Positions 1 to 51,556 of a stretch of DNA of 64,000 nt are shown here, piece by piece; positions within the stretch are counted from its first letter, which is position 1; the number at the start of each line of letters is the position of its first letter. Under the pieces are notes generated by a model. The model did no database searches and was not told where the DNA came from. It worked only from the letters and a program-made list of their open reading frames with translations. Origin of the DNA: a virus. Location: the IMG/VR virus record IMGVR_UViG_3300010049_000002. The stretch is one strand, 5' to 3'. Both the position numbers and the translations under genes were made by a program.

Positions 1-1
1 C

Positions 2-106
2 AAGAGGCGAGCCCGAAAGCCCAACCCCGATACGACCACCCTGGCCGTTCTAGGCGGCGGGGTCGCATTCATCGGCCTTGGCCTCTTCCTTCTCCTGAAG
101 AAGTAG
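2..106 (+). CDS. 3' end of small membrane protein with basic-xNP-TM module (5' end outside window)
   Basis: Frame 2 reads KRRARKPNPDTTTLAVLGGGVAFIGLGLFLLLKK*; same layout as N-terminus of 26478..27164 product (RKENPDTTTILIIGGLVIATGVGVYFLT). Confidence 0.4.
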   Translation, partial: KRRARKPNPDTTTLAVLGGGVAFIGLGLFLLLKK

Positions 107-382
107 CTTCCGGGCCTGGATAATCTCCCCGGAGATGGCTACGGCATCCTCCTGGGTCATCTTCCCCAGGTCCACCTGCTCCTGCAAATCCGGGCCGGTG
201 ATGTAGTGGGCCATGAAGCGCACGACGCCAGCCCGATGTTTCTCGGGGTCGAACAAATCCGCGCCCAAGAGCCGGTTCACATAGAGCGGGATAGCGTGGA
301 ACATCACCACGAAGCTTCGCCAGACGAAGAGCGCCAGCCCCTTGAACCCCTTAGGCCGATGGGTGAGGTGCATCACCATCAT
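50..382 (-). CDS. hypothetical protein (110 aa)
   Basis: ORF 50..517 trimmed to MMVMHL start; AAGAGG SD; ATGA overlap with upstream stop at 379; 3' end overlaps convergent 2..106 ORF. Confidence 0.45.
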   Translation of the reverse strand: MMVMHLTHRPKGFKGLALFVWRSFVVMFHAIPLYVNRLLGADLFDPEKHRAGVVRFMAHYITGPDLQEQVDLGKMTQEDAVAISGEIIQARKLLLQEKEEAKADECDPAA

Positions 383-627
383 GACGGAACCTCTTGGCGC
401 ATCACGACCTGGGCCCCAAGGCGGCGCGACTCTTCGAACATCTGCCGGTGACGCACGCAGAGCCTCCCGAAGTCGATGGCGAGGCCCATCACCACCGTCG
501 CGGCCGACATCCCGCAAACGACTTGGGCTTCTTGATGCTCTAGCCGCCCCCCGTCGATGAGATGTTCATCGAGGTGCCGCGCGTAGACCTCGACCGCGCA
601 GAAGACGCAGGCATCCTCCGGTTTCAT
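379..627 (-). CDS. hypothetical protein (82 aa)
   Basis: Internal ATG (MKPEDACVFC..) of ORF 379..954; ATGA coupling at both ends. Confidence 0.45.
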   Translation of the reverse strand: MKPEDACVFCAVEVYARHLDEHLIDGGRLEHQEAQVVCGMSAATVVMGLAIDFGRLCVRHRQMFEESRRLGAQVVMRQEVPS

Positions 628-851
628 CGCCGATGCCGGTGGTCGTCGTCGGGGGGCGGAGCCGGGGCTGGGGCGCTCGCCTGGGGAATCAGCCGGGTAA
701 TCAAGCCAATTATCGCTCCAATCAGGCCAATGAGCCCGCTCAAGTCGATGGCCGCTTGGACGTCGGCCGGATGCCAGTGACTCCACGCCGCAGCTCCCGC
801 TGCAATCGCTCCGTCCACCTGCACGATGGCCTTGATGGTCTTCCAATTCAT
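624..851 (-). CDS. small membrane protein (75 aa)
   Basis: MNWKTIKAIV.. with hydrophobic helix LSGLIGLIGAIIGLITRLI; ATGA coupling both ends. Confidence 0.45.
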   Translation of the reverse strand: MNWKTIKAIVQVDGAIAAGAAAWSHWHPADVQAAIDLSGLIGLIGAIIGLITRLIPQASAPAPAPPPDDDHRHRR

Positions 852-1039
852 TGGGGCTCCTTCTTGAAGGTGGGCTGCGCGTAGTCGGGGTCCCCGTAGA
901 CTTTGTTGACCCGGCTCTTGCAGCCGGCGCAGAGGGTCCGGCCCATGGCCGCAATCATCGCGGCCTCCCCATGAACGCGGGCAATCTCGCGGAGCCTGGC
1001 CGCACACGTCTGGCAGAGCGGGACCTTGACCTGGGCCAT
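848..1039 (-). CDS. small CxxC..CxxC zinc-ribbon-like protein (63 aa)
   Basis: CQTC ... CAGC pairs; ATG start; coupled to downstream gene. Confidence 0.5.
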   Translation of the reverse strand: MAQVKVPLCQTCAARLREIARVHGEAAMIAAMGRTLCAGCKSRVNKVYGDPDYAQPTFKKEPQ

Positions 1040-1052
1040 CAGAGCGCTCCTG

Positions 1053-2540
1053 TCATCGGGGAGCTCCCCAACCTTGGGGTTGAGCCTGGGGTTGAGGCCC
1101 CTGGGGCATCGGCGGCATCGGGGGAGGAGCCATTGGAGCCATTGGAGCCATTGGAGCCATTGGAGCCATTGGAGCCACGTGGGGTGTCCCGTCGATGGCC
1201 CCCGGCGGGATATGGGAGACCACTTGGGGGCCCTGGGGGGCGCCGGCCACCTTCCGGACGACCTCCTGGACGGCCTGGCCGAGGCCTTCAGCTATCCCCA
1301 TCAGCTTCTCGGCGAAGATGGGATTCGTCATGGCGAGGCCCATCAAGGAAGGCCCACCCGATTCTTTGTCCAAAGCCAGCTTCACCGGCTGGCCATTCGA
1401 CCAATTGGCCCCGACTGGATAGCTTTTCCAGGGAACACCATCTTCGGGGTTCTCCGGGGGGACAATCTGGGCCGGTGGTTCGTCCCCCGGCTCCTCATCC
1501 CTTGGCGGAGCCCCGGCGCCGATGGATTTCTTGATGCCCTTCTCCATCTCGCCGACGAAGGTCTTGAGAGATGTCTCGAAGATGGAACCGACCGCCTGCT
1601 CCACCATCTTGGCCAATCCGGCTCCTGGCCCACTCGGAGCGGCCGGCATTGGAGCGGCAACCTGTGGCGGGTTCGCCATCCCGGCCCCTCGGAGGCCCTG
1701 GAGGACGCGGTTCGTTATCCGCTCCACGAGCTCATCGTCGGTCAGGCGCGGGGGATTGGCCAAGCCTGGAGGGGCCGGTGGGATGACGGGGTCGCGGCGC
1801 TCCTTGGCGGCGGAGAGCGCCTCCGAGAGGGCCCCCCGGAGGTAGGAGAGTTCCCCGAGCGTGGCCGCATCGACCGCCGGTGGAGCCTGGGGGGGATAGC
1901 CAAAGCCCCAAGGGGGAGGGGCCTGCCAGGGCGACGGGTAAGCGCCATAGCCCTCCGGAGCTCGAGGCGCAGCCGATGGCCCCGGGGGAACGGGGGGAAG
2001 GCCCAGCCCCGGAGAAGCCTCCACGCGCTCGGCCTGCTCGGCGGCGGCCATCATGGCGCGACACTCAGGACCCGAAGGCATAGGCAACCGACCGCTCGTC
2101 AGCAATGCCCCCGTGCCCTTCTTGAAGAAGAGCAAATCGTAGGTCGCCGGCTGGTCTGTGGTGGGGAGGTGCACATACCGGGTGATGAAATTTATCAACG
2201 CCTGGCCGGGCAGGGTGGTCCCGCTCCCCGCAACAGCCGAACCGGAGAAGCCCTGCCCAATCGGCTGGGCCAGCCCCGAAGCATGAGGGGGCCAGGTCCT
2301 CCTCACCTGGATGGTCACGTCGAAGGGGGAGCGCGTTGGTAATGCCGGGTCGTTCGACCCTGGGAGCCATTCGCAGACTTGATTCCAAACCAAATCCGCT
2401 TCGCTGACGCCGCTCCTGGCGAAGCTCTGGGGAGCCGAGGGGGCCTTTCCCGCGGGCCGCTCAAGGGGCCCATTGAGCTTTTTCTTCTTCGGAGCCTCCT
2501 CGTCATCGGGGCTCGGCGGGCTGACAACCTCCTCCGTCAT
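1053..2540 (-). CDS. hypothetical virion-module protein with Pro-rich and (MAP)5 C-terminus (495 aa)
   Basis: Long ORF, ATG start overlapping upstream stop; non-repetitive core, C-terminal PMAPMAPMAPMAPMAPPPMPPMPQGPQPQ. Confidence 0.6.
   Translation of the reverse strand: MTEEVVSPPSPDDEEAPKKKKLNGPLERPAGKAPSAPQSFARSGVSEADLVWNQVCEWLPGSNDPALPTRSPFDVTIQVRRTWPPHASGLAQPIGQGFSGSAVAGSGTTLPGQALINFITRYVHLPTTDQPATYDLLFFKKGTGALLTSGRLPMPSGPECRAMMAAAEQAERVEASPGLGLPPVPPGPSAAPRAPEGYGAYPSPWQAPPPWGFGYPPQAPPAVDAATLGELSYLRGALSEALSAAKERRDPVIPPAPPGLANPPRLTDDELVERITNRVLQGLRGAGMANPPQVAAPMPAAPSGPGAGLAKMVEQAVGSIFETSLKTFVGEMEKGIKKSIGAGAPPRDEEPGDEPPAQIVPPENPEDGVPWKSYPVGANWSNGQPVKLALDKESGGPSLMGLAMTNPIFAEKLMGIAEGLGQAVQEVVRKVAGAPQGPQVVSHIPPGAIDGTPHVAPMAPMAPMAPMAPMAPPPMPPMPQGPQPQAQPQGWGAPR
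1126..1179. repeat. 9-bp tandem repeat GGAGCCATT x5 plus one imperfect unit
   Basis: Direct reading of 1126..1179; encodes (MAP)n on the minus strand. Confidence 0.9.
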
Positions 2541-3481
2541 AGGAGAATCTCCGGCTCCAGCGCTGACACTGGCGACATGAGGGCCTGCTCGAATATCGGC
2601 GTGAAGAGATTCCGGAAGGGGAGCGCCTGGCGCTCGACGTCGATGAAGGGGTCATCAGACAACGGAAACAAATGCTGAAACCATGGGGTCAGAACGACGT
2701 CCGGCATGCTAACGAAGCCCGCCCCCCCGCGGGTGACTCGAATCTCATCGAGCTCGAGGATGAGATGAATCTCCGCCCCCGAGCCGGTCCCCTGCGGGTC
2801 GACGACAATCGCCGTCGGCATCTCAGCGAGGCCCCTCCCCGGGTCGAGGGTGTTGACCCCGACGAGGCTCCCCCCCGCACTGAAGACCGGCTGGAGCTGG
2901 GGGAGGATGGGGAAGTCGGCCGCGATGTTCATGGCCCCCGGCGGCAAAGCCGTTCCCTCGGGCTTCCCATAGAGGTTCGGGTCATTGGTGGTGGCCCGGA
3001 GCCTCCCCACCATCCTGATGAAGGAGTCCGGCGAGTAGCCCGCCCCCCCAGCCAAAGGCTCCGCGTGGTTCAGCTTCAGGTAGGCGAAGGCCTGGGCGGG
3101 CTGGTTCAGGGAATAGCTGTCCATGCTGACCCCACCGCCGGTCGGAGGGGGTGCGAGCCGGCCCCCCGCGAAGGTCACCACCGGGGGCTGTACATAGTCA
3201 AACCCCGTGTTGGTGACCGTGACGCTGGCGATGGGCGAGGCGCTGTTCCCACTCAAAGCGTTGGCCTGAGCGAAGCCATCATCCAGGGGATTCAGGCCCA
3301 AGAGGATGGTCCGGACCACGGGGTTGGCTGGAGGCACAACATGCCCGTCATCCACCAGCCTTACCCCCAGGAAGTTCAGGACATCCCGGGGCAGGCCCAC
3401 ATTGCCCATGATGGTTGCCGCCTCGGCGGGGGTGAGGCCCGCCAGGAAGGCGACGTACTGCAATCGGACCGCGCTACTCAT
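2537..3481 (-). CDS. putative structural protein (314 aa)
   Basis: Two G.G(F/Y)..xP.VV(T/L) blocks (TNTGFDYVQPPVVTFAGG; RGGAGFVSMPDVVLT) of the kind seen in phage structural proteins; coupled to neighbours. Confidence 0.55.
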   Translation of the reverse strand: MSSAVRLQYVAFLAGLTPAEAATIMGNVGLPRDVLNFLGVRLVDDGHVVPPANPVVRTILLGLNPLDDGFAQANALSGNSASPIASVTVTNTGFDYVQPPVVTFAGGRLAPPPTGGGVSMDSYSLNQPAQAFAYLKLNHAEPLAGGAGYSPDSFIRMVGRLRATTNDPNLYGKPEGTALPPGAMNIAADFPILPQLQPVFSAGGSLVGVNTLDPGRGLAEMPTAIVVDPQGTGSGAEIHLILELDEIRVTRGGAGFVSMPDVVLTPWFQHLFPLSDDPFIDVERQALPFRNLFTPIFEQALMSPVSALEPEILL

Positions 3482-4077
3482 GACGGCGGGGCCTGGGCCG
3501 GGGTTGGCGTCGGGGCAGGCTTCTCCGGGGTCGTGCCGTTCGTAGCTTCCTCCGGCTCCTCGTCCTCGGGTTCCGCCCCGGTGAAGGTCGCGTCATCGCC
3601 CGCGAGGTGCGCGCCATCCTCGAGGGCTTCCACCAGCTCGTCGCGCTTCAGCATCTCCTCCGACTGGCCCGCGATGTAGTCAATCATCATCTGGGTCTCG
3701 CCGCCGGCGAGTTCATTGCCATCAGCGACGACAGCTTGCGCCAATACGTCCCAGGTCATCGTCTCGGCGACATAGGTGGGCGCGACCCGGGTCAGGGTGT
3801 AGCGGGTCGGCCTTCTGTCCTGCCAATCCGAGGGGCGCGGGGTTGGGGGCGGGAGCGGAATGGAGTAGACCTTTATCACCTGCTCTGTTTGAAAGATGGC
3901 CAGTACCCCCGAGTAGCTGTCGAAGGGAACGGGCTTACTGACCTCGAACATGGTCGGCACCCCCGTCTGGGGATTTGCGAACCAAGCGCAGGAACGCCCT
4001 ACCGGGAGCTCGTCGGGCTCCACAATCATGTGGTCGGTGAGGTAGTCGCGGAAATCCTCGACGGTCTGGATGGGCAT
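3478..4077 (-). CDS. hypothetical protein, acidic C-terminus (199 aa)
   Basis: ATG start, first gene of minus-strand block diverging from 4213 gene. Confidence 0.6.
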   Translation of the reverse strand: MPIQTVEDFRDYLTDHMIVEPDELPVGRSCAWFANPQTGVPTMFEVSKPVPFDSYSGVLAIFQTEQVIKVYSIPLPPPTPRPSDWQDRRPTRYTLTRVAPTYVAETMTWDVLAQAVVADGNELAGGETQMMIDYIAGQSEEMLKRDELVEALEDGAHLAGDDATFTGAEPEDEEPEEATNGTTPEKPAPTPTPAQAPPS

Positions 4078-4133
4078 TTGGGCTCCAACCTGCGGCGCAG
4101 AAGAACCGGGGTCAAGGATAACGGGCAGGGAAA

Positions 4134-4146
4134 CCCGTGACCCGGT
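4134..4146 (+). promoter_or_regulatory. heptad-repeat motif copy CCCGTGACCCGGT followed by TAGAAT
   Basis: Divergent intergenic gap 4078..4212; same motif at 10 other intergenic sites. Confidence 0.55.
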
Positions 4147-4176
4147 TAGAATTAGCGCTCAGGCCGGCAGGCCTCC

Positions 4177-4206
4177 TTGCCCCTGGCCCCCGCCAGCCGG
4201 TACAAT
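4177..4206 (+). promoter_or_regulatory. sigma70-like promoter candidate (TTGCCC-N18-TACAAT), possibly leaderless for ATG 4213
   Basis: TACAAT ends 6 nt before ATG 4213; no SD in between. Confidence 0.4.
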
Positions 4207-4212
4207 CCCGTC

Positions 4213-4626
4213 ATGAGACAAGGGTTCAATCCGAGCGACGGGACGTTCTATCTGGTCCACCTCGCGCGGGCCCTCGCTTCCTCCGCCACCAACCCGCCGA
4301 CCCCACCGACTCCGCCGCCGACCCCGCCCACCGAGCAGTTCATCACCGCCCGCGGGGTGCTGCCCGTCGCGTCGCCACCGACCATCCCGCCCCTGACCGA
4401 CGCCCCGCTCGTCTACACCCTGACCGGCGCTCTGCCCGGCGATTTCATCATCGCGACGCCCAGCCCCAGCGTGGGCGGCACCGTCGCCGGGGTCATCGTC
4501 GGGACGGCGGTCTGTATCTTCCCCGACCTGGTGCAGCTCGACCTCGTCAACGGGGTGCAGGGGAGCCCCCCGGCCGACGTGAGCGCGCTGGCGTTCGACC
4601 TCGTGGCCATCCGGACGACGACCTAG
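4213..4626 (+). CDS. small spike/fibre-family protein (137 aa) with shared N-terminal FNP..FY..LA.A module
   Basis: MRQGFNPSDGTFYLVHLARALA matches N-termini at 59984, 60883, 61289; Pro/Thr linker; C-terminal PGDF.. head similar to 60897..61289 product. Confidence 0.55.
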   Translation: MRQGFNPSDGTFYLVHLARALASSATNPPTPPTPPPTPPTEQFITARGVLPVASPPTIPPLTDAPLVYTLTGALPGDFIIATPSPSVGGTVAGVIVGTAVCIFPDLVQLDLVNGVQGSPPADVSALAFDLVAIRTTT

Positions 4627-4635
4627 GCCGACGAG

Positions 4636-5844
4636 CTAAAACCCGAGCGTCGCCTCGACGATGGCCAGCTCCGTGTCGAGCTCCCTCTTCGTGATGCCCG
4701 GCTTGTCAGCGATGAGCTTCTTCCGGAGCGCCGCACGCACTCCTGCGGGGTCGGAGAGCATCTCGTCGATGGCCGCGTCGACCTCTTCTTGCGTCTTCGG
4801 TGTCTTGCTGAAGTCCACGGGCTTCCTCATCGTGTAGTAGTTGGGCCTGCCAAACCTAGCATAATTCCAGCCCGGTGGGGCGGACTCATCGTTGAACGGC
4901 GACTCGGTCTCGACAACGAAGCCATTGCGCTGATAGAGGTCCCGGAGGCCTTCGCCGAAGCACTCGAGGTAGTTTACCCCCTCGTGCTCGATGGCGAACC
5001 GGAGCATCCGTTCACCCATGCCCTTTCGGCCGCCCGCGTTGAAAAGTGCGGTACCCTCGACCCGCCCATCACCGTGGTCCTTGACCGCGATGCCGGCGAG
5101 GCCGTCGGGCGCGAGCAGGCGAGCCTTCATCGCCTGGAGCTCCTTGACCGAATAGTGCGTGACGAAGCCCGACGCCGGGTTGCTCGGGCCCATCGCGCGC
5201 TCGAACGCCTTGCGGAACTCCTTGGCGGTGGCCCGCAGGACTTCCGGGTCGCCGGTGGGGATTGGATTGGGCTCGGTGAGCCCGACCGAGACCTCCTCCT
5301 TGAATGTGTATTCCTTCTTCTCGACAATCGAATAGCAACTCGATGTTCCAATCACCACGTGGTCGAGGAACATCACCCCCTTGCCATAGGGCTTGGTGGC
5401 TTGCTGTATCTGCCGCGTGAGCTGCTTGTCCGCGGTGCTCGGCCGAGCCTTCCCACTGGGGTGGTTGTGGGCCACGATGAAGCCCTCGCAGCCGGATTCT
5501 AGGACCGCCCTCAAAACGTCTTCGACCCCGACGACGGTTGAGCTCCTCTGCCCCCTCGCAACTTCGTAGGGAGGAGTCTTCAATTCACACCGCAAGTCGA
5601 GTGGCAAAACGAGAAAAACCTCCTGGTCCTCTTGCCGTAGGCGCGGGGCCAAGAAGGCATATACTTTTTCCGTATTATCGAGTGGGCCCACCCGCTTGGA
5701 GAGAGCCAGCGCCGCCTCATGGGTCTTGGGGTCACGGGACACGCGCGCGAAGGGGATGACGCTCTCATGGGGAGCCTCGTGGACCACCTCGACGCTCTCG
5801 GCGGGTTCCCGCGCCCCCGGGCCTTGGATGACGGTCTTGGCCAT
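4636..5844 (-). CDS. RadC-like JAB/JAMM domain fused to GNAT acetyltransferase-like domain (402 aa)
   Basis: JAMM signature HNHPSGKARPSTAD; later GNAT motif A-like GGRKGMGERMLRFAIE..GF; ATG start. Confidence 0.75.
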   Translation of the reverse strand: MAKTVIQGPGAREPAESVEVVHEAPHESVIPFARVSRDPKTHEAALALSKRVGPLDNTEKVYAFLAPRLRQEDQEVFLVLPLDLRCELKTPPYEVARGQRSSTVVGVEDVLRAVLESGCEGFIVAHNHPSGKARPSTADKQLTRQIQQATKPYGKGVMFLDHVVIGTSSCYSIVEKKEYTFKEEVSVGLTEPNPIPTGDPEVLRATAKEFRKAFERAMGPSNPASGFVTHYSVKELQAMKARLLAPDGLAGIAVKDHGDGRVEGTALFNAGGRKGMGERMLRFAIEHEGVNYLECFGEGLRDLYQRNGFVVETESPFNDESAPPGWNYARFGRPNYYTMRKPVDFSKTPKTQEEVDAAIDEMLSDPAGVRAALRKKLIADKPGITKRELDTELAIVEATLGF

Positions 5845-5867
5845 GGGCTAGAGGATACCACCATGCC

Positions 5868-6188
5868 TTGTTGTCAAGGGGCTCCCGGGGTACCCTGACC
5901 CGTATGGAAGCGGGTCTCGTCGAGCAGAACCTCATCGTTCTCAGCTCCCGGCCCTTCAGCCTCGGGGCCGAGCATCGCCCCTACATGGTCTTGAGCCGCG
6001 GAGGGAGCGGCCCCTTCAACTGCCAGAACTGCAAGGCCTTCTCCCAGGACGAGCACGGCTGCTATCGCTGCTCGAGCCCGGAGTTTCAGGCCTTCATGGG
6101 GACGAGCCTGCTGCCTGATGAAAATGGCCGCCCGCTCGACGACCCGACGCGGTCTTGTTCGGACTGGTACCAGCCACGAGAGAAGTAA
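5868..6188 (+). CDS. Cys-rich hypothetical protein; start uncertain (TTG 5868 or ATG 5904)
   Basis: CQNC..C..C..C pattern; ORF track. Confidence 0.4.
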   Translation: MLSRGSRGTLTRMEAGLVEQNLIVLSSRPFSLGAEHRPYMVLSRGGSGPFNCQNCKAFSQDEHGCYRCSSPEFQAFMGTSLLPDENGRPLDDPTRSCSDWYQPREK

Positions 6189-6196
6189 GAGTCCCG

Positions 6197-6847
6197 ATGC
6201 CCCAGCTAGACCCCGCCCAGGCCGCGACCTACTACCTGGCCCGCCTGCCCCGGCGTAGCTCTGGCCAGCCCGCCGCTTTCCGCTTTGGCGCCCTCGACCT
6301 CTCCGGGATGACCCTACCCAGTAGCCTGCCCTACACCATCGCGCGCATCACTCCGCGCAACCAGATACCCTACGGCATAGGACCGTGGACGATACCTGCG
6401 GGCGGCAAGTTTGAGGACACCATCGACCTCGGCGCCCTGACCAACGACGACATTGTCCTCGTGAATATCGCGCAGCTCCCGACGGCGGGTAGCTCTTTGA
6501 TACTAGACCCCATCGCCTACCAGTACCTGGGGACGGTGACCTACCGCATCCGCAATCCAACGACCACCGATGTCACGATTCCCGACCTCCAACGGGGAAT
6601 CATTCAGTTCGTTGTCGTCAGAAAGAACCCCGGCAGCTATCTCACGACAGTCCCGATGACCGTCCCGGGGGCCCAGCCGGGCGACCTCGTCTTCGCCTCG
6701 GGCCTGCTTGGAGATGGAATCGGGGTCGCGGGGGCGGCTGTGACTGGAGTTGATTCCGTTTCGGTGAGCCTGTTCAACCTGACCGACACCCCCCAGATGC
6801 TGGGAGCGGGGTCGCTTTTGAGCGTCATGGTCCTCTCGGCCGGATAG
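6197..6847 (+). CDS. spike/fibre-family protein (216 aa)
   Basis: Trimmed to MPQLDPAQAATYYLARL (family N-terminus); C-terminal QPGDLVF.. head resembling 4213 and 60897 products. Confidence 0.55.
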   Translation: MPQLDPAQAATYYLARLPRRSSGQPAAFRFGALDLSGMTLPSSLPYTIARITPRNQIPYGIGPWTIPAGGKFEDTIDLGALTNDDIVLVNIAQLPTAGSSLILDPIAYQYLGTVTYRIRNPTTTDVTIPDLQRGIIQFVVVRKNPGSYLTTVPMTVPGAQPGDLVFASGLLGDGIGVAGAAVTGVDSVSVSLFNLTDTPQMLGAGSLLSVMVLSAG

Positions 6848-6860
6848 CCCCCTCCTCGAG

Positions 6861-7142
6861 CTACTCACGGTGGGCCTCCCGCAGCCTCCGTTCGACGCGG
6901 AGTAGGACAAGGTAGCCGAGCAAATCCAGCTCCACGTCCTCGCCCGCGGCGCTCCCCCGGGCCAGCCTGGAGAGCTTGTCATCGAGCCTCACCCGAATCG
7001 CCTCATCGGGCGGGGCCTTGGAGAAGATACGCAGCGGCCGGAGGGCCGAATCACCGTACGCCTCGTTCTTGGCAAGAAGCAGCGCCTTGAGCGCGTCGCA
7101 CTCCTTCTCGATGAGGGCCCGGGTGGCTCCGTCGTCATCCAT
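6861..7142 (-). CDS. DUF1599/Nmad1-like (MazG-fold-like) small protein (93 aa), tentative
   Basis: KNEAYGDS..RIFS...IRVRLDDKLSRL resembles my memory of the DUF1599 pattern (K.hDYG .. DK..R). Confidence 0.45.
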   Translation of the reverse strand: MDDDGATRALIEKECDALKALLLAKNEAYGDSALRPLRIFSKAPPDEAIRVRLDDKLSRLARGSAAGEDVELDLLGYLVLLRVERRLREAHRE

Positions 7143-7368
7143 CGTCTTCCCCCTTGATGCCCCTCCAGGCGCTCTCGCCAGCCAGAAAGAAAACCGCGAT
7201 GGCCCCCAGGACCTCCGACCAGGTGGTGAAGCTCGAGGGCCTAGTCACCGCGGACCACCAGACGGGATGGCAATCGCCGTCGCCCCAGCGGCGATTAGGA
7301 GCCGCCAGGCCCTCATCGGCTCCCCCCTCGGTTGCCCCTCCGCCAGCGGTCGATGCCTTCCTTCGCAC
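7135..7368 (-). CDS. possible small membrane protein (77 aa)
   Basis: ORF track only; hydrophobic segment VLGAIAVFFLAG; start unclear. Confidence 0.25.
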   Translation of the reverse strand: MRRKASTAGGGATEGGADEGLAAPNRRWGDGDCHPVWWSAVTRPSSFTTWSEVLGAIAVFFLAGESAWRGIKGEDDG

Positions 7369-7801
7369 CCAGCAGGGCGGCTACCAACAATTCCGAGATG
7401 GCCTCGCCCAGGCTAGGCCTAGCCGGCGACTCATCTTCCCCTTCGAAGCCCGCCTCGTCGATGGATTGCCACAGCCGGGCATGGCTTGTTGGCCGGAAGG
7501 GGATGGGCTCATCTTCATCCGGGGTGGACTGAACTCGCCCAGCCAGTCGTTCGGCCGTCTCGCGGCGGTCCGCTTCGAATCGTTCCGTTTGGGTCAAAGG
7601 CTTCATGGGTACCTTCTCCGGGTCAATCAGGCTGATGGGTTGAAAGAGCGAACCGTCCATGGGCGGCGTCCGGCTGTCGCGCGCCAGCTGGACGCAGAAC
7701 ACGCAGAAGGGCCGGTGGACGTTGTCGACGGGGAGAAACCACTCGGCCGGCCGCCCGCAGGCCCGCCCCTCGATGGGCCAGTCACAAGTGAAGGTTGTCA
7801 T
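7313..7801 (-). CDS. hypothetical protein (162 aa)
   Basis: Trimmed to MTTFTCDW; ATGA overlap with upstream stop at 7798. Confidence 0.5.
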   Translation of the reverse strand: MTTFTCDWPIEGRACGRPAEWFLPVDNVHRPFCVFCVQLARDSRTPPMDGSLFQPISLIDPEKVPMKPLTQTERFEADRRETAERLAGRVQSTPDEDEPIPFRPTSHARLWQSIDEAGFEGEDESPARPSLGEAISELLVAALLGAKEGIDRWRRGNRGGSR

Positions 7802-8361
7802 GGCGCTCCGCCCTCCCCGTCGAGGAAGCTCTCCTCGGGCCGACCGAACTCCTTGTCGATGTCCTCGAGGCGCGGCCGAGTCCACAGCCGCCAGACCCAC
7901 CCCCGCAGGGTTGCCAAGGCGAGGCCCAGCAAGGCCCCGCCGAGCCCGATGGGCCAGAGCACCAAGGCCTTTGGAACCCACTCCATGCCCGCGCAGATTC
8001 CCAACGCCAGGACCGTCAGCCCGGTCCCCCAGCGCCAGACCATCCGGGTCTCCCGCTCCCGGAGCTGGGCCACCCGCTCAAACTTCCTGACGGCCTCCTT
8101 GGCCTGAGCCAGCTGCTTGAGGACCGCCCGCCGGGGGGGAATGAGCTCGAAGAGGGCCAAAGGGCCCTCGGTCGTGGGCCCATCGAGAGGCTTGGCCAGC
8201 TCCAGCACGGCCCCAAGCGTTTTCTCGGCGGAGAGGTACTCGCTCGCGCACCCATCGCAGATAAGCCGGGTTGCGAAGGCGTTCCGGAACACGTAGGAGA
8301 CAGGCTCCCCGCAGAGCCGGTCCCCCCTTCTTGTTTCGCATCGGAGCATGGCGGGCAGCAT
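7798..8361 (-). CDS. membrane protein (187 aa)
   Basis: Trimmed to MLPAMLRCE (TGATG coupling with upstream stop); two hydrophobic helices near C-terminus. Confidence 0.5.
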   Translation of the reverse strand: MLPAMLRCETRRGDRLCGEPVSYVFRNAFATRLICDGCASEYLSAEKTLGAVLELAKPLDGPTTEGPLALFELIPPRRAVLKQLAQAKEAVRKFERVAQLRERETRMVWRWGTGLTVLALGICAGMEWVPKALVLWPIGLGGALLGLALATLRGWVWRLWTRPRLEDIDKEFGRPEESFLDGEGGAP

Positions 8362-8630
8362 CACCCATGCCCCATCTCGAGGTCGGAGAGGGACCCGAGC
8401 CCCGTGGCCCATAAGAGCCCTTGAACGAACCCAAGCCTCCGGAGGCGCATCCCGTCGCCCTCGCCCTCGGGAAGCTCAGAAGCCCGGATAGCCAGCCAGA
8501 GCGCCTGCTCCAGCATCTCTTCCCGGTCCGGCCAGGTCTTATTGGCAGGGAGCTTTCTCGCCTCCACCCCGCAGGAGTAGAGCTCCGCAATCCAGACCTT
8601 CAATGTCTCCTCGATGTTCTCTTCAGTCAT
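8361..8630 (-). CDS. hypothetical protein (89 aa)
   Basis: Internal ATG MTEENIEETL of ORF 8361..9161; overlaps upstream stop. Confidence 0.5.
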   Translation of the reverse strand: MTEENIEETLKVWIAELYSCGVEARKLPANKTWPDREEMLEQALWLAIRASELPEGEGDGMRLRRLGFVQGLLWATGLGSLSDLEMGHG

Positions 8631-8814
8631 CGCGCCGCTCCCCGTGTTCGTCGTTGTAGCGGGAGGGCATGCGTCTTCTCCACTCCCGGAGCATCTCGTC
8701 GGCCTGGACGGCAGCGTCACGCGGAAGGACCGGCGACGGCTGGCCCAGGAGGACCACGGCGAACGCGGTCCAGGTCTGCACTTCATCGACATTCTTGAAC
8801 TTGATATCAGCCAT
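8623..8814 (-). CDS. hypothetical protein (63 aa)
   Basis: Internal ATG MADIKFKN of ORF 8623..8874. Confidence 0.45.
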   Translation of the reverse strand: MADIKFKNVDEVQTWTAFAVVLLGQPSPVLPRDAAVQADEMLREWRRRMPSRYNDEHGERRDD

Positions 8815-9034
8815 GGTTCCTCTCGATGGTGTCTCCACAGATGATGCAGATGTCCCGGACGTAGGTCCGTACAATGAGCAGGTCCCGCGTGATGACGTCG
8901 CTCGGGATGGCTCCGTGCTTCATGCCCTCGAGGAGCCGGTCGATGACGTGGTCGGCGGAACGGTTGGGCGCCTCGTCGAACCGTCCTTCGAACCGGTGGT
9001 GGCCGAACAAGGTGGTGCACCGGACCCGGCTCAT
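8807..9034 (-). CDS. hypothetical protein (75 aa)
   Basis: ORF track; coupled to neighbours. Confidence 0.5.
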   Translation of the reverse strand: MSRVRCTTLFGHHRFEGRFDEAPNRSADHVIDRLLEGMKHGAIPSDVITRDLLIVRTYVRDICIICGDTIERNHG

Positions 9035-9264
9035 GGCTCCGGCTCGTCGGGAGGGTCATCCTCCCAGGGCTCCATGTCCTCGAACTTGTCGATGCCCCAC
9101 TCGGAGTTGTGCCAGGCCCCATCGAACTGCAAGGCCCCGCATTGGGGGCACCAATCAGCATTCTTGACCAGCTCCCGGCCGACCCAGATGCCGCTATAGC
9201 TCAAATCTGGGACTGCACCGTAGGCCGCCTCGATACGGACGCCGTTCGGGTGGGAGCAGCTCAC
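9031..9264 (-). CDS. small WCPxCG zinc-ribbon paralog 1 (77 aa)
   Basis: MSCSHPNGVRI...WCPQCGAL; paralogous to the next two genes. Confidence 0.6.
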   Translation of the reverse strand: MSCSHPNGVRIEAAYGAVPDLSYSGIWVGRELVKNADWCPQCGALQFDGAWHNSEWGIDKFEDMEPWEDDPPDEPEP

Positions 9265-9572
9265 GGTGTCTTCTCCTTGGGAGGCCCCAGGTCATTGCGG
9301 CTCGCTTCCCACTGATGCTTCTCGCAAACAGCCCCGACCACCTCCTCCCGAGGGAAGTCCCTCAGGTAGGCCATCATCCAGGAGGCCCCCTGGACCGCAG
9401 CTTGGGCTGCATCGTCACCGTGCTTGCAGAAGTCGGCAACCGCGCAGAAGGGGCATCGCATCTTCTGGAGCTCCGGCAGGCGCCACTTGTCGCCGACCGC
9501 GAGGAGCGCGCCGCAGTTCGGGCACCAATCGATGCCCTTTATCCGGACGCCATCGGAGTGGGTGCAGCTCAC
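9261..9572 (-). CDS. small WCPxCG zinc-ribbon paralog 2 (103 aa)
   Basis: MSCTHSDGVRI..WCPNCGAL. Confidence 0.6.
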   Translation of the reverse strand: MSCTHSDGVRIKGIDWCPNCGALLAVGDKWRLPELQKMRCPFCAVADFCKHGDDAAQAAVQGASWMMAYLRDFPREEVVGAVCEKHQWEASRNDLGPPKEKTP

Positions 9573-9838
9573 GGCTCACCTCCACGCCGCTCCAGGGCCT
9601 CCAGCGGCTCCTGATGCTTCTCGCCGGTCCACGGCGCGTGCCACTGCCCGCCGAAGAGCAGCGAGCCGCAGTCGGGGCACCACTCGGCCCGGAGGAACTC
9701 GTCGCGCTTCGCCTGGAAGCTCAAGGAGCCGTCGGCGCTCGGGCTAGGAATGAACCGGCCGATGGACAGACGCGCCCAGGGGCCAAACGGTGCGGGGTCG
9801 ATTTGGAAGGCCTTGTTGTGGCTACAGCTCGCGGTCAT
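9569..9838 (-). CDS. small WCPxCG zinc-ribbon paralog 3 (89 aa)
   Basis: MTASCSHNKAFQI...WCPDCGSL. Confidence 0.55.
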   Translation of the reverse strand: MTASCSHNKAFQIDPAPFGPWARLSIGRFIPSPSADGSLSFQAKRDEFLRAEWCPDCGSLLFGGQWHAPWTGEKHQEPLEALERRGGEP

Positions 9839-10059
9839 TCGGCTCCAGCCCCAATCCGCTCCATGAGCTCCCCGTAGAAATCATCTGCCAAATCAATGGT
9901 CATCGTCTTGGCGTCGCCCATGTCGAAGTCGTGGTCGTCGCCGGTCATGAAGGACGCTACTACCGTTGCCGCGGCCTCCAGGCACTCCAGCCAGTGGTGG
10001 GCCTGCTGGGCGGTGTGAAGCTCGGGGAAACCCACTTCCTCATCACTCTTCTTGGTCAT
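9835..10059 (-). CDS. acidic hypothetical protein (74 aa)
   Basis: AAGGAG SD upstream of ATG; first gene downstream of the repeat region. Confidence 0.55.
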   Translation of the reverse strand: MTKKSDEEVGFPELHTAQQAHHWLECLEAAATVVASFMTGDDHDFDMGDAKTMTIDLADDFYGELMERIGAGAE

Positions 10060-10726
10060 AGTTTCTTCTCCTTGGAAATGCCCTTACGGAACCAGCGATA
10101 CGCCACGAGACAGAACGTAGCCACACGTCACGGCAATAAGTTCTAGAGATGCCCTTACAGTACTGAGCGATACGCAACGAGACACGACGAAACGAGACAC
10201 TAAAAAACCGCGCCCTACAAAACCGCGCCGCACATAGCGGAACGCCACTGCGCGTAACCGACCCAACAGCGCGCGAGCCAACGCAACCTGACAAACGTCG
10301 CACCCGCACAGCCTCGAACATCCGCTTCTCCTCGTCGGAGACAAGTATTTTCATTTGGTTGGTTCGTTCCGCCATCTAGAAATGTCCTTACAGAACCGGA
10401 CTAGAGGTGACAGCACCACGCGCGACGACACATTGCCGCACCCCAATGAAACCCGCACTCTACTCGACGCAACCGTACGCAACGCAACGCCACAATACGG
10501 GACAGAACACCACCCAACGACATTGGAGTTCTTAGAAATGCCCTTACAGAACCGCACGAGGCATAACAGTGCCCCACGCAACCTGACACCGCCCAACGAC
10601 ACCCCGCGCAACCGGAAGCCACCTAACGTCACGCCACGTCATTATAAAAGCCATTACAGAAGATTGCCCGACGCGACACAACAACGCCATACGTAGCCAC
10701 ACCCGACAAAAGACACCGGAGGGGAC
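10060..10726. repeat. noncoding A+C-skewed region with five same-orientation copies of a 20-mer (AGAAATGCCCTTACAGAACC)
   Basis: Copies at 10074, 10145, 10378, 10534 and a degenerate copy at 10644. Extra shared words: CGCAACCTGAC at 10282 and 10577, ACGTAGCCACAC at 10115 and 10691. Plus strand is visibly T-poor. Confidence 0.8.
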
Positions 10727-11338
10727 CTAAGCCGCGAGTTCTTCCTCCTTCTGTTTCTCCCAGCATTGAATTACATATTGACCGTAAACGCCCTTCCGGT
10801 TAGGGCGAAAGTCCCCCAAGCCGCACCGCCTTCCCGCCTTGTCCCAGAGCTCCCGGATGGTGTTCTCCCCAATCTCGTGGTCGTCGATGAGAATCCTCGC
10901 CCCGAAGCTCCAGGCGTCGAAGCGCGGCCGACAGATGGCCACGGCCTCGCCCCCGTTCGGGTTTCGGCCTTGCTTGACGTCCGCCTCCCAGGTCGCGGGC
11001 TTCTCGGTGTTCGGGACGTAGAGGGGCATCACGAAATCCAACAGCGTCATGAGCCCGGGCAGTACCGTGGCTTTCGCCGTCGAGATTTGTCTCTTGGCAT
11101 CGAGCCGGACGAAGACCCCGGCCGCAATCAAGCAGGCCATGAGCATATCCCCCGGCAAGATGCACAGGTCCCCGTGCATGTAGACCTTGGTCTGGGCCTC
11201 CTCGCGCGGGGTCCGTGTGGTCCCGACGTTGGCGGCCTTGGGCTTCTTGATTTTCGTCCGGATGGTCTCGAGGGTGTTCTCGTCCATCCTATTGAACAAT
11301 AGCGGCGTGATTCCTCGACAGCGTATATTGATTAGCAT
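10727..11338 (-). CDS. conserved-looking hypothetical protein (203 aa) with Gly-rich C-terminal GLGDFRPNRKGVYG motif
   Basis: Trimmed to MLINIR (AAAGGA SD); sits between two A+C-skewed noncoding segments next to the polymerase. Confidence 0.6.
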   Translation of the reverse strand: MLINIRCRGITPLLFNRMDENTLETIRTKIKKPKAANVGTTRTPREEAQTKVYMHGDLCILPGDMLMACLIAAGVFVRLDAKRQISTAKATVLPGLMTLLDFVMPLYVPNTEKPATWEADVKQGRNPNGGEAVAICRPRFDAWSFGARILIDDHEIGENTIRELWDKAGRRCGLGDFRPNRKGVYGQYVIQCWEKQKEEELAA

Positions 11339-11395
11339 TGGATTTTTTCCTTTTTCCCCTTGCGGGGCCTTACAAAAGAGGAGGGCACATCGCAT

Positions 11396-11484
11396 AACGA
11401 GAACCTAGCGAACGTCGCGTAACCTGACGTAACAACACCCAACCCGACATGACGATACCTGGCGTCACCAGACGTAACCCGACG
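11396..11484. repeat. second A+C-skewed noncoding segment (GACGTAAC / CGTAACCTGAC words)
   Basis: CGTAACCTGAC at 11418 matches words in 10060..10726; weak 20-mer relic GCCTTACAAAAG at 11367. Confidence 0.5.
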
Positions 11485-14187
11485 TTATTCAAAGTCCCTC
11501 CATCTAAGCCCGACCTTCAAGTCAATGTCCTGAATGAACTCAACCCCTCCAGGTATTCGCACAGGCTCTGACCAAATCTCTTTTATAGCCTTAGTGGCCT
11601 TGTCGACCTTGTCTTCCGGGCACTCGTACACAGAACTGTCGTACTGATACAGACAATGCCGTATGCCCCCCGGGAGCCGCTGGTCGGTCAGGGCCAGCCG
11701 CTCGTTCATCACGTCGGCCACCCCGCTCTGCACGGGGAAATTAGCCACTTCCTGCGGCTTGGGGAAGTGGCCGAGCCACCTTTTCCGACCGAGGAACGGG
11801 GAACGCAAATAGCCCTGCTCCGAGCACACCTTGATGTTCTCCCGCACGTATTCCCCGTAGCGCCAGTACTTCACCCGGATGGCGTCGATGGCATCCTGGC
11901 AGGTATCCAGGTCGATGGTGAAGCCGTGCTCGAGCAAGTGCTGATGGAGCCGCTCGGCCTCGGCGAGGTAGATGATGGCGAAGCCGCAGTTCTTCGCGAT
12001 GTCTCTGAGTTCCTTCCCCTTGCCTTTGGGGTCCTCCAGGCGTTCCAGAGCGCCGGGCATACCGCCGAACAAAATCTTGGCGTTCGCAGTGTGGATGTCC
12101 GACCTGCAGGCCTCGATAAAGGCCGCGTCGCCGCTCAAGGCGCTAGCAAATCTCATCTCGGATTGCCGCAAATCGTAATAAATCAGCCGATGGCCCGGAG
12201 CGGCGATGTAGATGTCCCGGCATTGGTACTCAGCGAGAGGCTCTTTCCGCTTCTTGGGGTTGCAGGTCTCCTTGTGGGTCATCCCATCGATGAGGGCCAA
12301 ACCGCAACCGGGACAATGCTGAAATCTTGGGATATTCAATAAGTTAGGTACCCGAGCGGAGGGCCGTCCGGTCTCAGTCCCATAACTCCTCCAGTGAGCG
12401 TGAACGCGACAATCTGCCCCTAAATGCAAACCATCTAAATATTCCTTTCTTACGTCATTCGCCGTCCTCCAGGCCATAATCAATCTGGCTAATTGGGCCG
12501 CCTTGTTGCTCCCCATCGCCAGCTTTTCCAGGGTGGCCTTGTTGACGGCCAAGAGCCCGGTCGGGGTCAGCTCTGTCAGATAGGTCGGGGTCTTCAGCTG
12601 CTTGAAGAGGGCCCTGCGCAGGTCCCCCGGCCGGCTGGGTGAGAAGGTCCGCCGGTCGAGCAGGGCCCGCATCTGGCCGAGTAGTGAAGCCGACCGCCGG
12701 CGGAGATGAACGGAGAGCTCCCGCTTCCGCTCCTGGTCCACGAGGAGCCCGTTGACCTGCATCTTCCTACACAAGAGCGCATGCCTCATGTCGTGCTCGT
12801 AGACGCGCCTTTCTACACTCAGGTTGTCCTGCATCCGAATCCAGGCCAGAGACCCTAAATGGATATCGGCGGCGCAGTACATGGGTAGGTCCGCCTCGGC
12901 GACCCCAAAACCCCTTACCCCCTTCTCCTCGGAGCCGACCTTGAACTTTATCTTCCAGGGGGCGGAGCTGTTGTAGATGGAGCTGACAAAAGATAGCGAC
13001 TTCGGCTTGTCGCTCGCGAAAGCAAAGTGGGCAATCAACGTGTCCTCGCGCTTGGAGTAGGTCACCCCGAATCGGGCCAAGGCGATTTCATCGAAGCTAG
13101 GGCCGTTGTGGGTGACGACCGTTCGGTCCTTGAGAGCGTCCCGCAAAACGGAGAACATCTCCGGGGCTAGGAACACCTGGTCGGGAGGCTTGGTGAGGAG
13201 AACAATCCGGCTCTTGAGGAGCCTCTTGACCTTCCCCTTGGCCACCCTCTCGATGTGCTGAACGTCGGCCAGCCCGACGCACGTGATTCCAACTTCTAGC
13301 GGGTCAGTTCCGTCCGTCTCGATATCACAGTTGATGACCGGGCCCATCTTGGCCAGGAGCCGTCGAGCCTTCTCCGGGTCGCTCGTCTCGATGAACGGCA
13401 CCGCGTCCTCAAGGGGGAACCCTTCCGGGCCGCTGGCAATCCACCGGGCCATCCTCCCGATGTCGATGCGTAGGACCGGCATCCAGCTATCGGCCCCCCG
13501 CAGAATCATGGCGGGATGAACGCTGGGGATGACAACCCGGCCCTGGAGGGTGGCCCGGCACTTCAGCAACGCGAGGGAATCTCGGGCCGACTCAATCCGC
13601 TCCGGAGATGCTGGCCGCACCTCCAGGAAGGTCCCGTCCCGCTGTACGACCGAGCCCTGGAGCCGGAGCAGGTTCCTCTGGGCGCTCTTTATCGACCCAT
13701 GGGGGATTTCGGCCGCATGCCAGACAAACCCACGGATTCTCATCACCGATGATTTCCCGAGCGTCGGCCGGCAGGCCTCGGAGCCCAGGGTGAGAATCGG
13801 CACCCCGGGGAACTCCCCTAGCTCTTGAGCCAATCGGCCCGCGCAGCAGGGGATGGCGCGCTTCAAAGCTTGGTCGTTGTCGGAGACGCAAAGGGCTGCG
13901 TTGGTGATGTGGCATTCATCGCGACGTAGCCCAGCTTCCCCCAGGCACTCATTGAGCAACCGGCCGCTGGGTCCCTTGAAGGGACCACCGAGGTTCATCT
14001 CATATCGGCCCGGGTTCATCCCGATGATGATGAGCTTCGGGCTCCCGCGAGCGCGCTCCGGGGGAACGGGCTTGGAGCCGCGAAGAGAGCATCGATGACA
14101 CTCAGCTCCTTGAGCCGCCGGCCAAGGGACCTCCGGGGGGTCAGGCGGGATGGCCGCAGAGAGGGCAGACAATCCCGCCGCCGTCAT
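11485..14187 (-). CDS. family-4 UDG-like domain fused to family A DNA polymerase with 3'-5' exonuclease (900 aa)
   Basis: UDG-like GMNPGRYE..GGPFKGPSGRLL, HPAMILRG. Exo DIETDG. Pol motif A DLRQSEMRF, motif B RDIAKNCGFAIIYL, motif C QYDSSVYE. Confidence 0.9.
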   Translation of the reverse strand: MTAAGLSALSAAIPPDPPEVPWPAAQGAECHRCSLRGSKPVPPERARGSPKLIIIGMNPGRYEMNLGGPFKGPSGRLLNECLGEAGLRRDECHITNAALCVSDNDQALKRAIPCCAGRLAQELGEFPGVPILTLGSEACRPTLGKSSVMRIRGFVWHAAEIPHGSIKSAQRNLLRLQGSVVQRDGTFLEVRPASPERIESARDSLALLKCRATLQGRVVIPSVHPAMILRGADSWMPVLRIDIGRMARWIASGPEGFPLEDAVPFIETSDPEKARRLLAKMGPVINCDIETDGTDPLEVGITCVGLADVQHIERVAKGKVKRLLKSRIVLLTKPPDQVFLAPEMFSVLRDALKDRTVVTHNGPSFDEIALARFGVTYSKREDTLIAHFAFASDKPKSLSFVSSIYNSSAPWKIKFKVGSEEKGVRGFGVAEADLPMYCAADIHLGSLAWIRMQDNLSVERRVYEHDMRHALLCRKMQVNGLLVDQERKRELSVHLRRRSASLLGQMRALLDRRTFSPSRPGDLRRALFKQLKTPTYLTELTPTGLLAVNKATLEKLAMGSNKAAQLARLIMAWRTANDVRKEYLDGLHLGADCRVHAHWRSYGTETGRPSARVPNLLNIPRFQHCPGCGLALIDGMTHKETCNPKKRKEPLAEYQCRDIYIAAPGHRLIYYDLRQSEMRFASALSGDAAFIEACRSDIHTANAKILFGGMPGALERLEDPKGKGKELRDIAKNCGFAIIYLAEAERLHQHLLEHGFTIDLDTCQDAIDAIRVKYWRYGEYVRENIKVCSEQGYLRSPFLGRKRWLGHFPKPQEVANFPVQSGVADVMNERLALTDQRLPGGIRHCLYQYDSSVYECPEDKVDKATKAIKEIWSEPVRIPGGVEFIQDIDLKVGLRWRDFE

Positions 14188-14432
14188 GAGGGCTCCCCGT
14201 CGCGCCTAAAAGGAGCCACCACCGCCGCCATCCCCTGGCACTCCGCCAAGAGCTCACAGACGAGCTTCGAGATTCTCTCCACCCGCTCGACCGGGCAATC
14301 GCCCCGGATGGTCACAGCCAACAATTCCCGGCCCCGCTCGTCGATGACCGAGCACTCGGTGAAGTCGGCCGAGAAGTTCATGGTGAAGGTGATGAACTTC
14401 TTCGTTGGCTCGGCGAAGAACTCCGCCATCAT
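14184..14432 (-). CDS. hypothetical protein (82 aa)
   Basis: ORF track; coupled to polymerase gene. Confidence 0.5.
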   Translation of the reverse strand: MMAEFFAEPTKKFITFTMNFSADFTECSVIDERGRELLAVTIRGDCPVERVERISKLVCELLAECQGMAAVVAPFRRDGEPS

Positions 14433-14803: not shown

Positions 14804-15003
14804 CTTGCTAGCCCCGGAAAGAGGGGGAGGGTTCTCTCTTCAGCAGATAGCTTCAACCCGCTCAGCCTGGAGGCGTTTTCCTTGAGCAGGTTCAAATACG
14901 CGAGCTCGACGAGGCTACCCAAAAGCTCATTGGGCTTGACCCCCTCCTCGTCCGCCAATTCCTTGAGCCACCTGGATTGCCTTTCTGAGAGATAGACCAG
15001 CAT
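14800..15003 (-). CDS. small DNA-binding-like (RHH-like) protein (67 aa)
   Basis: MLVYLSERQSRWLKELADEEG.. beta-helix-helix-like start. Confidence 0.45.
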   Translation of the reverse strand: MLVYLSERQSRWLKELADEEGVKPNELLGSLVELAYLNLLKENASRLSGLKLSAEERTLPLFPGLAR

Positions 15004-15035
15004 CTTCAGCCTCCATTGAGTTGTCAGCCGAGAAG

Positions 15036-46168: not shown

Positions 46169-46170
46169 GC

Positions 46171-46443: not shown

Positions 46444-46448
46444 CGCGC

Positions 46449-47776: not shown

Positions 47777-47785
47777 GGCAGCGCC

Positions 47786-51544: not shown

Positions 51545-51556
51545 ATCATCGCTCCA

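Follow-up and report, generated by a model that had tools for sequence, protein, structure and literature searches.

Architecture of the RadC–GNAT gene and its product

The 64,000-nucleotide stretch of DNA from IMG/VR virus record IMGVR_UViG_3300010049_000002 (referred to below as the window) contains, at positions 4636–5844 on the minus strand, a gene for a protein in which a RadC-type JAB domain is followed by a divergent GNAT-fold domain and a helical tail. The open reading frame (ORF) begins with ATG, remains open over its whole length and encodes 402 residues and a stop; we refer to its product as P0001. The GC contents at the three codon positions are 0.64, 0.43 and 0.81, which is a coding-type pattern for a window of 65% GC, and the plus-strand frame at 4789–5502, which overlaps the gene, lacks such a pattern. 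An identical protein is on record on two contigs, the longest of which is 65,174 bp. The gene is a solitary minus-strand transcription unit, with a weak terminator-like hairpin at its stop and a divergent gap of ~60 bp upstream. This short intergenic region (5845–5903) contains a TTGACA hexamer and a GGTGG element on the minus strand upstream of the ATG, from which we infer a putative promoter and ribosome-binding site for the gene; a consensus promoter scan of 5845–5903 called no promoter.

The full-length model of P0001 was built on alignment A4 with the register checked. It has a predicted TM-score (pTM) of 0.44, and both domains have a predicted local distance difference test score (pLDDT) above 85, with values below 50 confined to residues 1–28, 35–37, 185–199 and 344–348. 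In this model P0001 is composed of two well-folded domains joined by a flexible linker and making no confident contact with each other. The N-terminal residues 1–28 (5761–5844; this and the following features are all on the minus strand) are predicted to be disordered, and the alignment with the closest homologue, P0267, begins only at residue 16. The RadC-type JAB/JAMM domain spans residues ~29–180 (5305–5760, pLDDT 85–97) and is connected by the linker (residues ~181–199, 5248–5304) to the GNAT-fold acyl-CoA N-acyltransferase-like domain (residues ~200–341, 4822–5247). This is directly followed by the C-terminal tail (residues 342–402, 4639–4821), which ends in TLGF. The linker coincides with a homology boundary, as the similarity of P0003, P0004 and P0005 to the C-terminal half starts at residues ~196–200. 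A preliminary description of this gene, made from the DNA sequence, had cited a sequence string, a motif and a tail, and all of these are present.

In the N-terminal half of P0001 we find a JAB domain of the RadC clade whose active site is intact. The Pfam RadC family PF04002 matches residues 56–176 (E-value 3.6e-27, 95.1 bits against a cut-off of 22.1) over profile positions 2–119 of 121, PHROG 10276 matches with an E-value of 4.1e-21, and the solved RadC structure 2qlc is retrieved by sequence with phmmer (E-value 1.7e-10). The model of the JAB domain also aligns with this structure in Foldseek (E-value 5.5e-9, TM-score 0.84 by target, root-mean-square deviation 2.4 Å, 123 columns). The segment HNHPSGKARPSTAD at residues 126–139 fits the JAMM pattern HxH-x7-S-xx-D in a regular-expression search, as H126-N-H128-x7-S136-x2-D139 (5428–5469), and the upstream glutamate, placed by residue numbering, is E75 (5620–5622). 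The metal-binding and catalytic residues of the JAMM site (E75, H126, H128, S136 and D139) are thus complete. The JAMM signature in a RadC-like context that had been noticed in the preliminary description is therefore borne out by the 95-bit match to PF04002 and by the motif. The Cap3-type JAB models of PADLOC gave 19.3 bits (E-value 2.4e-4) over residues 116–170 only, that is, around the HxH motif, and no deubiquitinase-type JAB was among the Foldseek matches listed for the domain. We conclude that this half is not a Cap3-type isopeptidase. The N-terminal HhH module PF20582, which is carried by the cellular homologues, had no match in P0001 at E-values up to 10. Because this module is absent, P0001 is classified as a RadC-domain protein and not as a YicR orthologue.

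For the C-terminal half, sequence alone does not establish a GNAT fold. The Pfam family Acetyltransf_7 scored 14.6 bits against a cut-off of 27 (E-value 0.044), and a family-profile search of solved structures returned the GNAT structure 2qec as a marginal match (E-value 0.092). Family members were gathered exhaustively with phmmer, using residues 190–402 as the query, and 66 of them were aligned (alignment A1); only 3 of these have an Acetyltransf Pfam match at an E-value of 0.01 or better. The search returned 1270 representative clusters (50% identity) at E-values up to 1e-3 and 197 at E-values up to 1e-10; the module thus belongs to a widespread family for which Pfam has no dedicated model.

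The AlphaFold2 model of residues 195–402 (mean pLDDT 93.2, pTM 0.79) has the topology β1-α1-α2-β2-β3-β4-α3-β5-α4-β6-β7, which is the complete GNAT order. Foldseek found 93 matches in the PDB at E-values up to 1e-3, and all those listed are GNAT proteins, with a probability of 1.00. VIA-align, which is independent of Foldseek, filled its top 50 with GNAT enzymes (Z 10.8–13.6 over 118–143 aligned residues). Its top three include PA4794 (3pgp, Z 13.6) and RimI (5isv, Z 12.7), with Ard1/Naa10-type enzymes just below, and the structural neighbours of the domain in the ESM Atlas include RimI and RimJ/L clusters. Based on this modelling, the C-terminal half is predicted with confidence to adopt the GNAT fold. 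The preliminary description had called a GNAT domain and had singled out residues ~230–340 as the place where the call could fail; the fold is present there according to AlphaFold2, Foldseek and VIA-align. As the Pfam cut-offs were not reached, the domain is filed by its fold at the superfamily level and under no Pfam family. Different GNAT subfamilies reach indistinguishable Z-scores, so the substrate cannot be read from the fold.

The stretch at residues 271–309 that had drawn attention to the GNAT similarity (GGRKGMG...LYQRNGF) maps to the β4–α3 loop and the α4 region of the model. The pyrophosphate loop (G272-R-K-G275-M-G277, residues 272–277) retains the G-x-G element, which is also present in the family consensus. 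Near-invariant residues in alignment A1 are G251, H257, D259, G260, E263, G289 and N291, together with L300, Y304, G308, F309, A322, W326 and P334, and a hairpin with the sequence DHGDGR(I/V)E at residues 256–263 is specific to the family. We take Y304 to stand at the position of the α4 tyrosine of many GNAT enzymes, and E263, which opens β4, presumably occupies the position of the general base in several of them.

The extra helical tail of the preliminary description corresponds to three helices in the models (residues 352–364, 366–380 and 386–400). The tail is conserved in the closest relatives only, where it is always the last part of the protein and its final residues are (T)(L/V/I)GF or GV(N/G)F; 12 relatives have the GF end. 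A search with the tail alone (residues 343–402) returned only the query, this stretch being too short for the word index, and no paralogue turned up in the window when the tail, GNAT and RadC parts were used as tblastn queries.

Relatives and partners of the two modules

Among 266 retrieved proteins, P0001 is the only one that has both halves, and no protein of similar length covers more than 54% of it. A search of longer proteins added a single further example, P0267 (705 residues), which shares 49% identity with P0001 over 391 columns that span RadC, linker, GNAT and tail (E-value 4e-122). P0267 is encoded on a 91-kb contig (ENA ERZ1759910) with the gene order UDG-PolA (a uracil-DNA-glycosylase domain fused to a family-A DNA polymerase), RadC–GNAT, and then genes for 78, 207, 278, 541 and 464 residues. 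The presence of P0267 in a syntenic contig indicates that the fusion is probably under selection. The same contig has a ThyX gene between the PolA and RadC–GNAT genes, and a helicase gene (1126 residues) with intein and LAGLIDADG matches.

A second related element, locus L002, shares with the window the gene at 10727–11395 (71% identity) and three genes downstream of RadC (46, 38 and 34% identity). In the window the latter are the consecutive minus-strand genes at 3478–4077, 2537–3481 and 1053–2540, which encode 199, 314 and 495 residues and are kept downstream of RadC in L002 at 34–46% identity. At the same place the ERZ1759910 contig carries genes for 207, 278 and 541 residues, a correspondence judged by size. 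The RadC gene therefore lies at the same place in the two related elements, upstream of three conserved genes. The UDG-PolA gene is upstream of it in the ERZ1759910 relative and falls outside the 13 kb that were read for L002. The RadC protein of L002 (P0013, 314 residues) has a RadC domain 62% identical to that of P0001 and a different N-terminal extension, and it ends after RadC with no GNAT domain. The RadC subfamily also includes P0018 and P0027, which have a canonical Pfam GNAT domain upstream of RadC.

As a side observation, P0002, P0015, P0018 and P0027 of the RadC subfamily have a common N-terminal segment (TYE..VRKTL..LG..DPD ... ERHRHEV) that belongs to no Pfam family. This segment may serve as an adaptor module of these multi-domain proteins.

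The closest copies of the GNAT domain with its tail, at loci L003, L004 and L005, have nothing but this cassette in common with the window. In the closest loci the cassette stands alone or follows domains that we recognised by eye as ParB-like (P0003) or protein-kinase-like (P0008, P0009 and P0012). P0003 (L004, 8285–9712) displays a DGHHR motif in its N-terminal part, and the N-terminal parts of P0008, P0009 and P0012 (L005 and L006) display a glycine-rich loop with VVKI and a DLH..N motif; Pfam matches none of them. At L004, a 622-residue gene on the minus strand (13160–15028) has a weak AcrVA2-like Pfam match and lies 3.5 kb from the gene for the ParB-like, GNAT and tail protein. In addition, L004 13169–13330 resembles window 45608–45769 (54% identity by tblastx).

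These comparisons suggest that a positionally conserved RadC gene gains and loses modules, and that the GNAT–tail cassette moves between unrelated elements. The preliminary description had considered that the two halves might be separate genes in relatives. This is true insofar as the GNAT domain is absent from RadC relatives or joined to other partners, but it was never found as a separate gene beside RadC.

Across the phmmer clusters the GNAT domain is usually C-terminal, in proteins of 150–2800 residues. Its partners include Phage_portal_3 (P0039, P0126, P0127 and P0152), NUDIX with Zeta_toxin (P0147), and 2H phosphoesterase with or without an ADP-ribosyltransferase (ART) (P0182 and P0183). 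Among 35 mid-sized carriers we found Zeta_toxin (5), Phage_min_cap2 (3), Phage_Mu_F (1), LPD39 (1) and DUF7178 (1). In an ESM Atlas cluster the partner of 99% of 128 members is Phage_Mu_F, and in Microbacterium phage UtzChips the carrier is gp4, a VG15 'minor capsid protein' encoded between the portal and scaffold genes. The top matches in BFVD are viral proteins of ~1000–1400 residues, one of them a 'Large polyvalent protein associated domain-containing protein'. We conclude that the GNAT domain, with or without its tail, is a mobile effector cassette. In tailed phages its fusion partners are portal, MuF and minor-capsid proteins and giant ART, 2H, NUDIX and Zeta-kinase proteins, which would place it among the enzymes that enter the host with the genome or right after it.

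The family also occurs as a solo gene. By tblastn, a gene annotated 'acetyltransferase' was found in 29 Streptomyces phage records (Amela, Verse, Joe, Sitrop, Endor1 and others), at 31–36% identity and E-values down to 3e-6, and the domain was also found in Limnohabitans phage DC33 and Haloarcula tailed virus 2. The Streptomyces matches do not cover the tail because the query ended at residue 345. These genes differ from that of P0001 in lacking RadC, and their place is close to the right end of the genome, outside the head module. Probably, then, some members of the family are produced in the cell instead of travelling in the virion. The paper on polyvalent proteins describes two GNAT families (PMC5512222). 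As a tblastn search with the ART and GNAT part of P0183 against phages returned no match, we do not link the GNAT domain of P0001 to the ART-adjacent family of that paper.

Genomic setting in the window

The genes immediately next to RadC–GNAT are on the plus strand. On one side is an ORF at 4213–4626 (GC3, the GC content at third codon positions, 0.92, coding-like). On the other are a small cysteine-rich ORF (CxxC ... C..C) at 5868/5904–6188, of ~94 residues from the first ATG (GC3 0.82 for 5868–6188), and an ORF at 6197–6847 (GC3 0.80, coding-like). A PADLOC scan, the only one applied to the ORF at 5904–6188, gave no match. Beyond these flanks the genes are again on the minus strand: the three conserved genes of 1053–4077 on one side and, on the other, the genes from 6861–7142 up to the PolA gene at 11485–14187. 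The preliminary description of a lone minus-strand gene among plus-strand genes is thus accurate for the immediate flanks, but the genes further out in both directions lie on the minus strand. The moron-like placement that was proposed on this basis did not hold up, with a RadC gene that is positionally conserved in two related elements and plus-strand flanks that are absent from L002. Judging from this comparison, the plus-strand genes look like insertions and RadC–GNAT looks like a resident.

The three genes of 1053–4077 match no Pfam family, and tblastn of two of the conserved downstream proteins against phages was empty. The 314-residue product has weak PHROG matches to 'head closure Hc2' (E-value 4.2e-5) and to virion structural proteins. 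The PolA gene (11485–14187, minus strand) encodes a 900-residue family-A DNA polymerase with an N-terminal domain of the uracil-DNA-glycosylase superfamily, and the same fusion occurs on the contig of P0267 (878 residues). Other recognisable genes of the window are AAA_24, DUF5906 (primase-helicase-like), a PD-(D/E)XK nuclease, SNF2, and serine and tyrosine recombinases. Ten large ORFs in 45800–63300 match no Pfam or PHROG family, and megablast of window positions 1–12000 against phage records gave no match.

Interpretation and comparison with known systems

Phages and conjugative elements encode multi-domain proteins known as polyvalent proteins, whose building blocks include peptidases, ARTs, kinases, GNATs, ParB, RadC and 2H. 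Many of them are packaged and enter the recipient along with the DNA, and portal and MuF fusions mark those that are delivered (PMC5512222). The class is recognised by two or more conflict-type domains in one chain and by their shuffling; P0001 has two such domains, each of which occurs with many other partners. We therefore consider that the RadC–GNAT protein is a two-enzyme polyvalent effector in the sense of Iyer et al (2017), acting in host takeover or anti-defence, and we put the probability of this reading at roughly 60%; any specific target would be much less certain. The protein is a small, rare example of a described class and not a new kind of system.

We hypothesise that an uncultivated, high-GC phage-like element encodes in P0001 a small polyvalent protein of two independent enzymes on a flexible linker, formed when the positionally conserved RadC gene captured the GNAT–tail cassette in this virus lineage. 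The protein would act at an early stage of infection, having come in with the particle or being synthesised straight away. The GNAT domain would then draw on host acetyl-CoA or acyl-CoA and acylate an amine of some component of the host or of a defence system, and RadC would separately process a nucleic-acid or nucleotide substrate. The fusion itself would serve only to co-deliver or co-express the two enzymes. Because the structural neighbours of the GNAT domain are RimI- and Naa-like, its target is most likely a protein. The protein may be delivered with the DNA, which is suggested only by other phages, where the GNAT module is joined to portal, MuF and minor-capsid proteins, and a role of the tail as a docking or packaging element is pure speculation on our part.

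Several observations weigh against this reading. The element is only putatively viral; no portal, MuF, capsid, terminase, type IV secretion or conjugation gene is recognisable in the window by Pfam or PHROG, and nothing in it shows that the protein is packaged or injected. The gene forms a transcription unit by itself next to the replication block, and the solo genes of Streptomyces phages, as mentioned, lie away from the head module. With respect to the GNAT domain, no Pfam GNAT model (Acetyltransf_1, 7 or 10) scores above its gathering threshold for P0001, and the first position of motif A is a glycine and not a glutamine or arginine. Finally, we know of no established biochemistry for RadC.

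The preliminary description had proposed two functions. In one, ubiquitin-like conjugates produced by CBASS Cap2 or Bil systems would be cut by the JAB domain, with the GNAT domain delivering a second hit. The catalytic residues of the JAMM site are all present, a weak Cap3-type match exists (E-value 2.4e-4), and the characterised JAB enzymes are known as isopeptidases. However, that match amounts to 19 bits over residues 116–170 against 95 bits for RadC, the closest solved structure is RadC 2qlc with no deubiquitinase-type JAB among the Foldseek matches listed, and RadC proteins are stated to lack the groove for a ubiquitin tail, nucleic acids or nucleotides having been proposed as their substrates (PMC5512222). 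Because the JAB domain is of the RadC type and not of the Cap3 type, an anti-ubiquitin-like isopeptidase is unsupported and deserves very little weight. In the other proposal the GNAT domain would have a toxin-like activity regulated by the JAB domain. We considered it in a broader form, as a growth-arresting toxin that works either through TacT/AtaT-like acetylation of aminoacyl-tRNA or as a MuF-type polymorphic toxin payload, with RadC or a neighbouring gene as regulator or immunity factor. The occurrence of the GNAT domain at the variable C-terminus of MuF, minor-capsid and portal proteins, which is the position of MuF toxic domains (PMC5576092), and its frequent pairing with Zeta-toxin-like kinases speak for such a toxin. 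Yet no small downstream immunity or antitoxin gene is common to the window, L003, L004 and L005, the scanned neighbours have no Pfam or PADLOC match, and acetyltransferases are mentioned 0 times in the paper on MuF toxins (PMC5576092). Regulation by the JAB domain found no favour in the model either, which has no confident packing between the domains (pTM 0.44, linker pLDDT <50), and no antitoxin-like neighbour was found. We therefore regard the toxin as decidedly unlikely.

The position of the linker raises the possibility that RadC is a self-processing peptidase that cuts it and frees the GNAT–tail enzyme after delivery. The JAB fold is a metallopeptidase fold, the disordered linker falls exactly at the cassette junction, and peptidases that release other effector domains have been discussed (PMC5512222). 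Such processing is nevertheless highly improbable, given that the cassette is also joined to peptidase-free partners (kinase-like and ParB-like by eye, portal and MuF), that RadC relatives have many other partners or none, and that the RadC clade has no known peptidase activity (PMC5512222). The gene might instead be an accessory of replication or repair free of any host conflict, with RadC acting on DNA ends by the PolA block and GNAT on a viral protein or metabolite. Like the gene of P0267, it borders the replication module (PolA+UDG, AAA_24 and DUF5906) on the downstream side, and cellular RadC was first tied to repair (PMC5512222). That role is disputed (PMC5512222), the partners of the GNAT cassette are overwhelmingly virion or effector modules, and the domain content of the locus varies among close relatives, which would be unusual for a core replication function; we judge this option very unlikely. 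As just two proteins with this architecture were found, an assembly or frameshift artefact joining two genes was also considered. It is next to impossible in view of an independent 91-kb contig from another sample with the same RadC, GNAT and tail order and 49% identity across the junction, the occurrence of the exact protein on two contigs, and the continuous reading frame and GC3.

A bolder proposal, which we consider unlikely, is that the GNAT domain with its tail is a self-contained virion-cargo effector, in which the conserved three-helix tail with its GF-COOH end replaces the fusion to a head protein as packaging or docking signal in viruses without a recognisable portal or MuF protein. 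On this view RadC–GNAT would enter the host by injection and, much as AcrVA5 does, inactivate a host target of defence or takeover by acetylation. If true, this would provide the first compact experimental handle on what the RadC domain does.

For the two-enzyme polyvalent effector that we prefer, the interest lies mainly in the modules, and the existing picture of polyvalent proteins is unchanged by P0001. A large phage domain family of 1270 clusters at 50% identity, which has no Pfam model of its own, gains a fold and a name. Its presence on portal, MuF, minor-capsid and giant polyvalent proteins points to acetylation as a common, putative activity of phage-delivered effectors. RadC is among the commonest unexplained domains of mobile elements, and the 402-residue, two-domain P0001, which has a conserved relative, is handier than the usual carriers of 1700–4000 residues. 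The acetyltransferase hypothesis is directly testable in cultured relatives, namely the Streptomyces phages of the Amela/Joe group and gp4 of Microbacterium phage UtzChips.

Compared with RadC/YicR proteins (2qlc, Chlorobium tepidum RadC; PF04002), P0001 shares the JAB fold, the HxH...S..D site and the upstream glutamate, and differs in the absence of PF20582 and the presence of a C-terminal GNAT domain. With the RimI, Naa10 (Ard1) and PA4794 enzymes (5isv, 4pv6 and 3pgp) it shares the topology (Z 12–13.6 over 131–138 residues), the G-x-G pyrophosphate loop and the α4 tyrosine. Identity to these enzymes is only 10–16%, the Pfam models remain below their cut-offs, and the family has its own invariant residues (H257, D259, G260, E263 and W326) and, in P0001, a three-helix tail. 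AcrVA5 is a solo GNAT anti-CRISPR protein that acetylates Cas12a. As a GNAT of a mobile element that disables a host defence protein by acetylation, it is a functional analogy for the proposed role of P0001 and nothing more.

The relation to MuF polymorphic toxins and portal- or MuF-fused effectors (PMC5576092; PMC5512222) is through the relatives of the GNAT domain, which sit as the variable C-terminal payload on MuF, Phage_min_cap2, VG15 and portal proteins; P0001 itself lacks a MuF or portal part, and we found no immunity-like partner for it. The preliminary description had called RadC-like JAB proteins unexplained passengers and knew of no described fusion with a GNAT domain. A search for literature on a RadC–GNAT fusion, or on RadC with anti-defence or acetyltransferase activity, found nothing relevant and no paper on the exact fusion, but RadC and GNAT are both listed as parts of polyvalent proteins (PMC5512222) and RadC occurs with a canonical GNAT domain in P0018 and P0027. 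Like the polyvalent proteins, P0001 combines several conflict-type enzyme domains in one polypeptide of a mobile element, shuffled among relatives. It differs from them in having only two enzyme domains in 402 residues, which places it at the lower limit of the class, and the joining of RadC to a GNAT domain whose other partners are phage head proteins is a small departure from the described set.

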